Assembly (NCBI GenBank): GCA_964016885.1
Contig: OZ024748.1
Span: 4,278,001-4,342,000 of the forward strand
Length of the DNA: 64,000 bases
Direction: 5' to 3'
Source of the DNA: Eledone cirrhosa
Lineage: Eukaryota
Part shown: piece after piece, positions 8,715 to 61,773 of the stretch
Layout: every line of letters starts with the position of its first letter
Position numbering within the stretch: position 1 is the first letter of the stretch
The notes under the pieces: generated by a model
Seen by the model: the letters and a program-made list of their open reading frames with translations, nothing else
The model's database searches: none
Told to the model about the DNA's origin: nothing
Translations under genes and position numbers: made by a program

Positions 8715-9058
8715 AGCCGTGGGCGGTAGGCCGTTTGAGCACTCGATGCTCCCGCAGAGCAGAGTATATTATAATAAATAACGAGGAATCAGTGATGCAC
8801 CAAAACCCAATTTATTAACATATTACATATGTTTCTCCGATAATCAGTTCAAAGCAGGATCTGTTACAGATCGAACCTGACTCTGCATTCGCAAGTTCAT
8901 CGGATGAAATGCTTTGAAAACACAAAACATATCTGAGGAACTTGCGAACGCAGAGTCAAGTTCGATCTGTAACAGATCCTGCTTTGAACTGATCATCGGA
9001 GAAACATATGTAATATGTTAATAAATTGGGTTTTAATGCATCACTGATTTCTCGTTGT

Positions 9059-9411: not shown

Positions 9412-9522
9412 TAAGATCAAAAGATGGTTAAAAGAGTTCCATGTATTTTATTATGCGCATTTCAAAAACAAATATCATCATGCAATAATATTTAACCATC
9501 TTTAACCATCTTTTGTTCTTAT
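9412..9522 (-). mobile_element. Family E copy truncated within HHR helix II, with a re-inverted end
   Basis: Reverse complement of ~52329-52410, including ATTATGCGCATTTC, followed by the sense-strand end TTAACCATCTTTTGTTCTTA. Lies in (TA)n. Confidence 0.75.
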
Positions 9523-9854
9523 ATATTATGTATACTCCAGTCCTACAAACTGTAGAGTGCTTCTTATCCGATATCTGCATTGCTTTATTGTACTACAATA
9601 AAACTCACCTCCTACATATATACATATATATATATATATATATACTTACGTGTGTGTGTGTGTACGTATGTGTGTGTGAATGTGTGTGAATGTGTGTGTA
9701 TATGAATGTACGTATGTTTGTATATTGAGAGTATATTCGTGAAGTGTCGTGTAGGTGGTTATATGTGGTATATTTGTTAAATATTGTAGAATGGCGGCTC
9801 ATTCAGATACGATCATAACACAAGAATACAAATAGGGAAATAATTGCAAAAGAC

Positions 9855-11941: not shown

Positions 11942-12116
11942 TGTATCGCTGCTTGCGTAATCATATAATGTTAGCAAGTATTCGATAGCAAATGTATAAT
12001 CAGTTGTCACTTCTTCAGAGATTTTGTTCATCTCTAACGTAACGATATATTATCACTACATTATTGATAACCTGAAATTATATATATATATATATGTATA
12101 TGTATATATATATACG

Positions 12117-12223
12117 AAAAAGTATGACCCCGATGGCAGAGCTCAAGCCGTTTCGACGGCTATTTCTGGACTGAGTACTCTGGTGCGTTATGGTCCATCT
12201 GGTTCCTTACCACAATTCCTTTG

Positions 12224-12227
<4 letters not shown>
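12117..12227. mobile_element. Family C element with the right arm deleted
   Basis: Inverted arm AGTATGACCCCGATGGCAGAGCTCAAGCCGTTTCGACGGCTATTTCTGGAC joined directly to the tail GAGTACTCTGGTGCG...TTCCTTTGTTA. Confidence 0.7.
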
Positions 12228-12280
<53 letters not shown>

Positions 12281-17517: not shown

Positions 17518-17546
<29 letters not shown>

Positions 17547-17748
17547 GGAGTAAGTAAGACCCCGACGGCTGAGCTCAAGCCGTTTCGACGGCTAATTCTG
17601 TACTGGAATTGAGTACAGAATTAGCCGTCGAAACGGCTTGAGCTCAGCCGTCGTGGTCTTACTTACTCCTATTACCCACTCTACTACCCTAAGTATTGAG
17701 TACTTTGGTGCGTTATGGTCCACCTGGTTCCTTACCACTTTTCCTTCG

Positions 17749-17750
<2 letters not shown>
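17547..17750 (+). mobile_element. Family C fold-back element
   Basis: Inverted arms around the centre CTGTACTGGAATTGAGTACAG, then GAAACGGCTTGAGCTCAGCCGTC and the shared tail. (TA)n flanks. Confidence 0.8.
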
Positions 17751-17835
<85 letters not shown>

Positions 17836-18088
17836 CACACATATATATATATATATATACATATATACACACAAGAGGTCACCATATACATATGCACACT
17901 TGGTTTTGTAAGTTGATGTGTTTTCTCTATGCACATCTGTCTGCTTTGCACGTTTTATGTCTCAGTATCTACGACACATCTTAGACGTAAGATCTGTCTT
18001 ACTAAATTTGTCAATTTTCTTAGTATATTATACACACCTCAACGAATGCATGTCTATTTGTAAATAGTTAAACATACACATGACTGTA

Positions 18089-19123: not shown

Positions 19124-19186
<63 letters not shown>

Positions 19187-19188
<2 letters not shown>

Positions 19189-19391
19189 AACGAGTAGGAC
19201 CCCGACGGCTGAGCTCAAGCCGTTTCGACGGCTAATTCTGGACGCTAATTCTGGCGTCCAGAATTAGCCGTCGAAACGGCTTGAGCTCAGCCGTCGGGGT
19301 CCTACTCGTTCCTATTATCCACTCTACTACCCTAAATATTGAGTACTTTGGTGCGTTATGGTCCATCTGGTTCCTTACCACATTTCCTTCG

Positions 19392-19394
<3 letters not shown>
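19187..19394 (+). mobile_element. Family C fold-back element
   Basis: Near-perfect ~60-bp arms around GACGCTAATTCTGGCGTC, then the shared tail. (TA)n flanks. Confidence 0.8.
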
Positions 19395-19455
<61 letters not shown>

Positions 19456-19490
19456 ACATACATTATACACATTATATGTTTTCTTATTTT

Positions 19491-19527
<37 letters not shown>

Positions 19528-29860: not shown

Positions 29861-30006
29861 GACAGCTAGATCCGAACTAGCTGTCGAAACGGCTGGAGCT
29901 CAGCCGTCGGGTCCTGACTCTTTTCTTATTACACACTCTACTACCCTAAGTATCGAGTCCTCTGGTACTTTATGGTCCACCTCGTATCTTACCACACCTT
30001 CTTTGC

Positions 30007-30007
<1 letters not shown>
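29861..30007 (+). mobile_element. Family C subfamily copy without fold-back
   Basis: GACAGCTAG-ATCCGAA-CTAGCTGTC-GAAAC-GGCT-GGAGCTC-AGCC-GTC-GGGTCC plus the tail. Confidence 0.75.
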
Positions 30008-30043
<36 letters not shown>

Positions 30044-52153: not shown

Positions 52154-52218
<65 letters not shown>

Positions 52219-52297
52219 AGGAGGTGAGTTTTATTGTAGTAAAGCAATATGTTGATTTAAAACTGCACTATTCACAAGTGTGTTTTAACCTTCATAT

Positions 52298-52382
52298 CAT
52301 GTCTCCCTATTTTATCTGACGAAAACGCAAATGTTATTGCATGATGATATTTGTTTTTGAAATGCGCATAATAAAATACATG
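52298..52382 (+). ncRNA. Canonical type-I hammerhead ribozyme (family E)
   Basis: Helix I TATTTTAT (52308-15) / ATAAAATA (52371-78) plus distal CATG/CATG, CTGACGA (52316-22), a ~15-bp helix II, GAAA (52359-62), palindromic ATGCGCAT, and predicted cleavage after AUA at 52370. Confidence 0.8.
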
Positions 52383-52406
52383 GAACTCTTTTAACCATCT
52401 TTTGAT

Positions 52407-52512
<106 letters not shown>

Positions 52513-52576
52513 AGATCAAAAGATGGTTAAAAGAGTTCCTTTTAACAATTCCTTTGTTATATATATATATATATAT

Positions 52577-52769
52577 AACAAAGGAATTGTGGTAAGGAAC
52601 CAGATGGACCATAACGCACCAGAGTACTCAATACTTAGGGTAGTAGAGTGGGTAATAGGAGAAAGTATGACCCCGACGGCAGAGATCAAGCCGTTTCGAC
52701 GGCTATTTCTGGTCCAGAAATAGCCGTCGAAACTGCTTGAGCTCTGCCGTCGGGGTCATACTTTCTCCT
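52577..52769 (-). mobile_element. Family C fold-back element
   Basis: Reverse-complement tail, then a palindrome centred on TTCTGG-T-CCAGAA. Confidence 0.8.
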
Positions 52770-55035: not shown

Positions 55036-55492
<457 letters not shown>

Positions 55493-57062: not shown

Positions 57063-57100
<38 letters not shown>

Positions 57101-57101
57101 G

Positions 57102-57137
<36 letters not shown>

Positions 57138-57186
57138 ATACATTAACAGAGAAAGCTTTATGCTATACTCGTATATATATATATAT

Positions 57187-57545
<359 letters not shown>

Positions 57546-58634: not shown

Positions 58635-58822
58635 TAGAAATAGAAGCTTTTGCCGTATTTCTTGACTAAAGAAATTTTAGCCTGATAGTCGGGTTTAGAA
58701 CCCTCTAAGAAATGGAAAAAGATGAGTATTGACGCGTGAATACTCATCTTTTTCCATTCTAAACCTCACTATCAGGCTAAAATTTCTTTAGTCAAGAAAT
58801 ACGGCGAAAGCTTCTATTTCTA
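58635..58822. mobile_element. Family D fold-back element
   Basis: Nested inverted arms centred on GACGCGTG (58731-58738). A second copy at 58906-59055 starts CGTCAATACTC. Confidence 0.75.
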
Positions 58823-61071: not shown

Positions 61072-61650
<579 letters not shown>

Positions 61651-61773
61651 ATATATATAAATATTAAATCAATGAAATTAAACAAAAAACGGTTAATTCA
61701 TAGTTAAACTCATTATTTTACGATCGTTTCTGGGGTGTAGTTCTCCGTATGTCCATTCCATTATTGATCTACG

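Follow-up and report, generated by a model that had tools for sequence, protein, structure and literature searches.

A type I hammerhead in the pseudo-LTR of a Penelope-like element with Hydra-clade motifs in Eledone cirrhosa

The stretch of Eledone cirrhosa DNA analysed here (the window: 64,000 nt of contig OZ024748.1, positions 4,278,001 to 4,342,000 of the forward strand) contains at 52298-52382 what an initial annotation, made from the letters and their open reading frames, had called an intact canonical hammerhead and the best candidate for activity. The question raised by this locus is whether it holds a self-cleaving ribozyme and, if so, what it belongs to and under which conditions it would cut. 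The reading that we favour, with a probability of roughly 0.72, is that the motif represents a pseudo-LTR (pLTR) hammerhead, of type I, from a Penelope-like element (PLE) with Hydra motifs, present as a 5'-truncated solo copy, and that its cleavage is slow and conditional, occurring via helix III pairing or with the help of the element's protein. The features of the locus, in window positions, are as follows.

52247..52412, + strand: 5'-truncated 3' end (pLTR) of a Penelope element resembling Hydra; identity of 93-99% with each of the two pLTRs in L050 and L031
End of 52247..52412, + strand: short 3' terminus of the element, ~42-45 nt past the cut site
52216..52241, - strand: inverted tail piece at the truncated 5' end, matching the tail end in L050, L063 and L031 at 26/26 nt; an inverted junction of this kind is typical of PLEs
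52308..52315, + strand: helix I, 5' strand; 8 perfect pairs with 52371-52378, two-sided changes in 5/8 across families
52316..52322, + strand: catalytic box C3-A9 (CUGACGA), from sequence
52323..52358, + strand: helix II, three A-U pairs, a C.U mismatch and a 12-bp hairpin, from folding; 98.8% of cells paired in a pre-selected alignment
52359..52362, + strand: catalytic box G12-A15.1 (GAAA), from sequence
52362..52369, + strand: helix III, 8-nt palindrome and predicted dimerisation element, self-complementary also in related families
52370..52371, + strand: predicted cleavage site, after A52370, from hammerhead numbering
52371..52378, + strand: helix I, 3' strand
52410..52512, no strand: (TA)n tract, the element's target, from sequence
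52511..52539, - strand: second inverted 3'-end fragment of the same family, 29 nt, in the same (TA)n tract; it would pair with 52381-52410 within one transcript
9412..9493, - strand: second family copy, truncated inside helix II, aligning to 52329-52410 only
9501..9617, + strand: inverted arm with full tail, part of the 9412-9493 insertion, 98% identical to the L050 tail

The motif and its structural conservation

The first point to establish is that the motif is a genuine type I hammerhead motif, structurally conserved. Its conserved core (C3-A9, G12-A15.1 and U16.1-H17) is complete, with CTGACGA at 52316-52322, GAAA at 52359-52362 and ATA at 52368-52370, and hammerhead numbering, in which A52370 is H17, predicts cleavage where it was first placed, after that base. 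Around this core, the sequence bears out three further elements of the initial annotation: a perfect helix I of 8 bp (52308-52315 with 52371-52378), a long helix II consisting of three A-U pairs, a C.U mismatch, 12 pairs (four of them G.U) and a 4-nt loop, and a palindromic helix III, ATGCGCAT at 52362-52369. A loose core pattern matches the window seven times against an expectation of 0.69, and a structural descriptor retains two places in the window, with a long helix I only in the motif at 52298-52382. Calling the motif as a whole canonical went too far. While CUGACGA, GAAA and ATA are present, pair 10.1-11.1 is A-U instead of G-C, the latter being highly conserved though not universal, position 15.2 is U, and Rfam returns no hammerhead, either in its four matches to 52230-52410 at a cut-off of E=10 or among the 150 matches listed of 475 for the whole window, where microsatellite matches dominate. 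Loss of the G10.1-C11.1 pair would be expected to reduce the rate of a hammerhead.

A comparison of 108 copies (84 young-type and 24 sister-type, a sample biased by how the copies were found) reveals seven fixed differences of the sister subfamily inside 52298-52382: one at N7, one at a loop base, three that turn G.U into Watson-Crick pairs, one that turns A-U into G.U at 10.1, and one that breaks the distal helix. N7 is the sole core position to differ between the subfamilies, in a comparison made without selection for the box, and frequent variants in genomic contigs fall at the same kinds of position as these fixed differences. The CUGACGA box is likewise invariant except at N7 in 14/14 aligned hammerheads, which were selected for having it. 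Related families follow a common plan in which three pairs are succeeded by a C.Y mismatch and a hairpin, while helix III is 8 nt long and self-complementary, being ATGCGCAT, ATATATAT, ATATGTAT (with wobbles) or ACCATGGT, and pair 10.1-11.1, which is G.U in the sister subfamily, is G-C in one related family. In the covariation alignment of 14 representatives taken from 85 distinct motifs, which are related and pre-selected for core and helix I so that the pairing figures are overstated, 92.9% of cells are paired in helix I, 98.8% in helix II, 98.2% in helix III and 50% in the distal helix. Overall, 87.7% of cells are paired, with 51 two-sided changes compared to 3-14 in slid-alignment controls, and none of 500 shuffles reaches either figure; in helix II, five of the six tested pairs have changed on both sides. 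Three helices with covariation thus surround the core, helix I being open and helix III present as an intermolecular helix only. The direction of this support is clear, and the sequence comparison indicates that the hammerhead is under selection for its structure.

Two other features of the initial annotation fared less well. The bulged distal helix (CATG/CATG around TCTCCC) is present in the window copy, but it is poorly paired across families, A>T at 52380 breaks its pairing in 23/24 sister-subfamily copies, and with the flanks included its pairing probability is 0.23 or 0.01. As regards a loop 1-loop 2 contact, the distal helix is unconserved and helix II is too long for the usual geometry; the recurring C.Y mismatch may take the place of that contact. 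AATAAA does overlap the cleavage site (52370-52375), but the signal is changed to AATAGA, AATGAA or AGCAGT in related families, and we rejected a link between the two. This overlap is what would commend a reading of the motif as a host regulatory element, in which the ribozyme is coupled to the polyadenylation signal of a host transcript. We consider that reading extremely improbable, given the loss of AATAAA just described, the low complexity by eye of the window ORFs of at least 120 aa listed, none of which is near the site (a list that misses short exons), and the identity of the window copy to at least 40 dispersed copies, because of which it shows no locus-specific history.

The parent element and the window copy

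The window is repeat-dense, AT-rich DNA from an assembly of 3.0 Gb, and copies of the motif abound in this genome. A search with 52255-52410 yielded 451 candidates, and the 40 that were scored all show 100% identity. An exact 34-mer from the 5' half of the motif has 934 genome matches and an exact 17-mer from its 3' half has 24,220 (control 0 for each), whereas a pattern admitting related families has 51,155 (control 64), with a CTGANGA box no more than 60 nt upstream in 26/30 of an unselected run of these wider-group matches. Among 30 exact copies, 21 carry an inverted 5' piece and 11 an optional tail of ~95 nt, and in the 30 loci listed the end or tail of the element gives way to TA-rich sequence. 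The window copy has the same make-up: 26 nt of inverted tail are joined to the final 165 nt of a pLTR, within a (TA)n tract.

The parent element was reached by tracing the tail. In L050, an ORF of 794 aa is intact and is flanked by two direct-repeat hammerheads spaced by 3627 bp. A further spacing between pLTR hammerheads is 3689 bp. L060 has an ORF of 799 aa; frameshifts or stops interrupt the ORF at most of the remaining 18 loci, and an upstream same-strand hammerhead is found at 9/20 ORF-bearing loci. The ORF displays RLRWI, SDKT and YRDDG, a CxCx5C linker, a C-terminal GIY-YIG-like segment, CxxC and CxH. Its assignment as RT and endonuclease comes from these motifs and from homologue alignment (34 homologues at 30-43% identity); Pfam detects neither RT nor GIY-YIG in it, and a PDB search with it gives nothing significant. 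In the RWK column, this family has RWI where homologues have RWK, RWR or RWE. Direct pLTR repeats flank one RT + GIY-YIG ORF in L050 and L031, and 5' truncation, inverted 5' pieces and an optional tail are found as in EN+ PLEs. DKT, the CxCx5C linker, CxxC and CxH, insertion into (TA)n and a 3' hammerhead are all as in Hydra elements, an exception being the descriptive size of the latter (generally <3 kb), which the 3.6-3.7 kb unit exceeds. It is near certain that the window motif is a PLE pLTR hammerhead. The parent appears to be a recently active Penelope-like retrotransposon with Hydra-clade motifs, its clade being proposed from these motifs and a by-eye resemblance to Hydra-1_Obim. Two other affiliations were rejected: membership of Naiad, since the endonuclease is C-terminal, and a non-LTR retrozyme, since there is no short same-strand tandem in 30 loci and the parent has an ORF. 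As a separate observation, L031:4480-5962 has both pLTRs intact, but between them an internal deletion, in frame, has removed most of the ORF's N-terminal half.

What does this imply for the window copy? No ORF remnants were found in the window by tblastn, nor does the window contain a same-strand partner of the same family, and without an ORF or a nearby same-strand partner this copy is most likely a passive insertion. Since the motif belongs to a PLE pLTR of ~20,000 copies, the window copy has no special claim to activity, and the title of best candidate can be upheld within the window only. The second copy, at 9412-9493, had been described as conserving the 3' two-thirds of the motif. It does keep 54/85 nt, but starts at the equivalent of 52329 and is devoid of CUGACGA and of the 5' strand of helix I.

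Other repeats are found in the window. A second hammerhead, of a different family, lies at 61203-61261 (-), with a G-C helix II base, ATATATAT as helix III and a C.C mismatch at the first helix I pair, a pair that is intact in its relatives L033, L034 and L120. Nearby, 61542-61672 (-) is an end piece of another repeat family, which adjoins many such insertions in (TA)n tracts and is also found directly after L050. Near-perfect inverted repeats of ~110 nt in (TA)n tracts are exemplified by 52657-52769, with relatives at 1248-1555, 12096-12244, 17529-17876, 19169-19524, 29866-30026, 55240-55374 and 57083-57469; this family probably represents the fold-back ends of another PLE-like or miniature element. 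There are also long near-perfect inverted repeats at 58635-58822 and, by eye, at 8836-9026, at which microRNA matches are below the gathering score and look spurious.

Conditional cleavage and its genomic traces

Whether the motif could cut on its own was addressed by nearest-neighbour folding, which leaves out Mg2+ and tertiary contacts. The folding energy of the monomer is no better than that of shuffles (z -0.60), helix III has a probability of 0.0, the core is mispaired in the MFE structure, and the active-like share is ~6e-5 in this secondary-structure model. Two copies co-folded reach -37.3 kcal/mol versus 2 x -12.0. Helices I and III then join the two strands, which is the double-hammerhead arrangement, and the intermolecular pairing probability is 0.89-1.0 for helix III; the three A-U pairs that begin helix II nevertheless stay at a probability of 0.06-0.07 in the dimer. 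These predictions bear directly on the possibility of a self-sufficient monomeric ribozyme that would cut upon transcription of the locus, perhaps with a contact between the helix II mismatch or loop and helix I. Such a ribozyme could rely on a complete core and an 8-bp helix I, and the C.Y mismatch past the third helix II pair does recur in related families; in addition, coral retrozymes have canonical type I hammerheads that cleave well in monomeric form, according to the part of that report available (PMC7229834). It is, however, hard to reconcile with the absence of helix III and the mispaired core in the monomer fold, with A10.1-U11.1 and with an unconserved distal helix, and the metazoan PLE motifs tested were inactive alone in the available parts of two studies (PMC4209133, PMC11167929). 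We regard it as unlikely.

In the conditional model that we prefer, cleavage would require either that the palindromic helix III bring two copies together or that the element's protein assist. Within a transcript that is full-length or tandem, a double hammerhead would form from the two pLTR motifs, which are separated by 3.6 kb, and would excise a unit-length RNA. Reverse transcription would begin at two sites, ~45 and ~139 nt downstream of the cut, and its template would be mostly uncut or re-ligated RNA, because nearly all copies span the cut site. This model agrees with published schistosome, axolotl and anole tests, as far as the available portions of these papers go: the S. mansoni PLE motif is inactive alone and weak as a dimer (PMC4209133), axolotl motifs with a weak helix III cleave far better as dimers (PMC7229834), and an anole PLE hammerhead cleaves only with the element protein and is dispensable for in vitro insertion (PMC11167929).

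Cleavage in vivo could leave traces in the genome. The cut site is spanned by ~98% of copies, and among ORF-bearing copies 29/40 cross it and 1/40 starts at +1. In bulk, 5' ends are not enriched there, with 333/20,713 (1.6%) next to the site versus 492/24,220 (2.0%) at a boundary 14 nt upstream. The preponderance of copies spanning the site is what one would expect if the motif were a structural or protein-binding RNA element, or a hitchhiker, that does not cut at a rate relevant in vivo. Parallels come from the available parts of the literature, in which the anole PLE still inserts normally when the core is mutated and RNA-seq gave no ends at its cut site (PMC11167929), and Naiad PLEs thrive without canonical hammerheads (PMC8557442). 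We nevertheless judge this alternative improbable, since the catalytic boxes are fixed between subfamilies while N7, loops and helices vary, and since there is a peak of fold-back junctions at the first base past the cut.

That peak merits a detailed account. There are 51 tight fold-back sites, of which 50 are listed, and a by-eye count of the perfect palindromes gives 16 with their centre at +1/+2, one at -2/-1 and none at either +2/+3 or -3/-2. All 16 cut-site fold-backs have different flanks, and each joins a tail-end arm to a short-end arm. Controls gave 2/32 at another 2-nt site and 8/32 at the 4-nt palindrome CATG. For the 8-nt palindrome, the count is 21 among the first 50 sites out of 86, which means that a palindrome by itself suffices to produce fold-backs on uncut templates. 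A tail control yielded 0 sites, and is weak in that the arms there would be ~20 nt. Replicates gave 3 at the cut site versus 1 upstream for 13 sites in the sister subfamily and, for a related family, 2 at +1 versus 3 at -2/-1 among the first 50 of 90 sites listed and then 9 versus 4 in whole-genome counts (flanks unchecked). Pooled fold-backs amount to 28 versus 6 at the adjacent upstream site (p 2e-4) and the replicates alone to 12 versus 5 (p 0.14), in a comparison that was chosen post hoc, after the data had been seen. Furthermore, the T4-AT-A4 context may by itself favour snap-back, and 14 of the 16 cut-site fold-backs (L184-L199) are, puzzlingly, outside C1-C8, which make up ~2/3 of the assembly by a rough estimate. 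With these points in mind, we propose only tentatively, at somewhat less than even odds, that head-to-head two-arm insertions at the first base past the cut record in vivo hammerhead cleavage. They would arise from twin cDNAs, one per reverse-transcription start, that run off the 5' end of ribozyme-cut RNA. No comparable fold-back analysis was found in the literature searched, the coverage of which excludes subscription papers and includes a retrozyme/PLE preprint in part.

L049:3006-3103 and L049:2358-2455 belong to a hammerhead family with G10.1-C11.1, C15.2, ACCATGGT as its helix III and a particularly long helix II, in which the first bases past the cut are not self-complementary, making it a good fold-back control.

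Significance and comparison with known systems

PLE pLTR hammerheads, including those of the Hydra clade, are already published, and the motif itself is therefore expected. What makes this family useful is that it is young and very abundant (the wider group has no fewer than 51,155 matches), with intact ORFs and a natural covariation series, and its architecture is unusual in combining an A-U helix II base, a recurring C.Y mismatch and a strict 8-nt palindrome. The role of PLE hammerheads in transposition is stated as unclear in the available part of one study (PMC8557442), and the one element tested gave no in vivo cut ends in that of another (PMC11167929). The fold-back signal could serve as a purely genomic test of this role. 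Should it indeed reflect cleavage, there would be evidence from a genome that the template for transposition is cut by a metazoan PLE hammerhead, and this young 20,000-copy family with an intact ORF would become a model for what PLE hammerheads do.

The closest known relatives are likely to be Hydra-clade PLEs, such as Hydra-1_Obim (Craig et al. 2021, PMC8557442), which, in the portions of the paper and its supplement available, share with the window family a single RT ORF with a C-terminal endonuclease, DKT, the CxCx5C linker, CxxC, CxH, a (TA)n target and, close to the 3' end, a type I hammerhead whose helix III is self-complementary and has 3-4 bp. By eye, the Hydra-1_Obim protein resembles the ORF throughout the RT, and its hammerhead, one of those tabulated for Hydra families in the supplement, also has A-U at the helix II base, although its sequence is otherwise unlike the window motif. 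There are differences as well with what is described there: the window family has RWI and not RWK, a 3.6-3.7 kb unit and a 3' UTR of near 1 kb, its helix II has 15 pairs and an inner mismatch where the listed Hydra motifs have 3-7 pairs, its motif has U at 15.2 where theirs have C, and its tail is ~95 nt compared to 30-40.

Minimal metazoan PLE hammerheads and those with a palindromic helix III (Cervera and de la Pena 2014, PMC4209133, in the part available) share the pLTR location, mostly dispersed single motifs in truncated copies, opposite-strand pairs 100-700 bp apart, a long helix II, a palindromic helix III and the dimer model, whereas the window subfamily differs from these motifs by having neither G10.1-C11.1 nor an unpaired base after A9, and by its longer helix I (8 bp). 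The Poseidon PLE of Anolis carolinensis (Frangieh et al. 2024, PMC11167929, likewise in part) shares two 3' ends per family (short and tail), an AT-rich target, a hammerhead upstream of both ends and insertions that span the cut site. It belongs to a different clade, and its hammerhead overlaps the start codon, while here the ATG is ~216-218 nt past the cut. Finally, non-LTR retrozymes (PMC7229834; bioRxiv 10.64898/2026.07.22.740005), in the portions available, share a type I hammerhead and dimer-dependent cleavage where helix III is weak. Retrozymes are short head-to-tail tandems with no ORF, whereas copies of the window family are dispersed truncations of an autonomous element.
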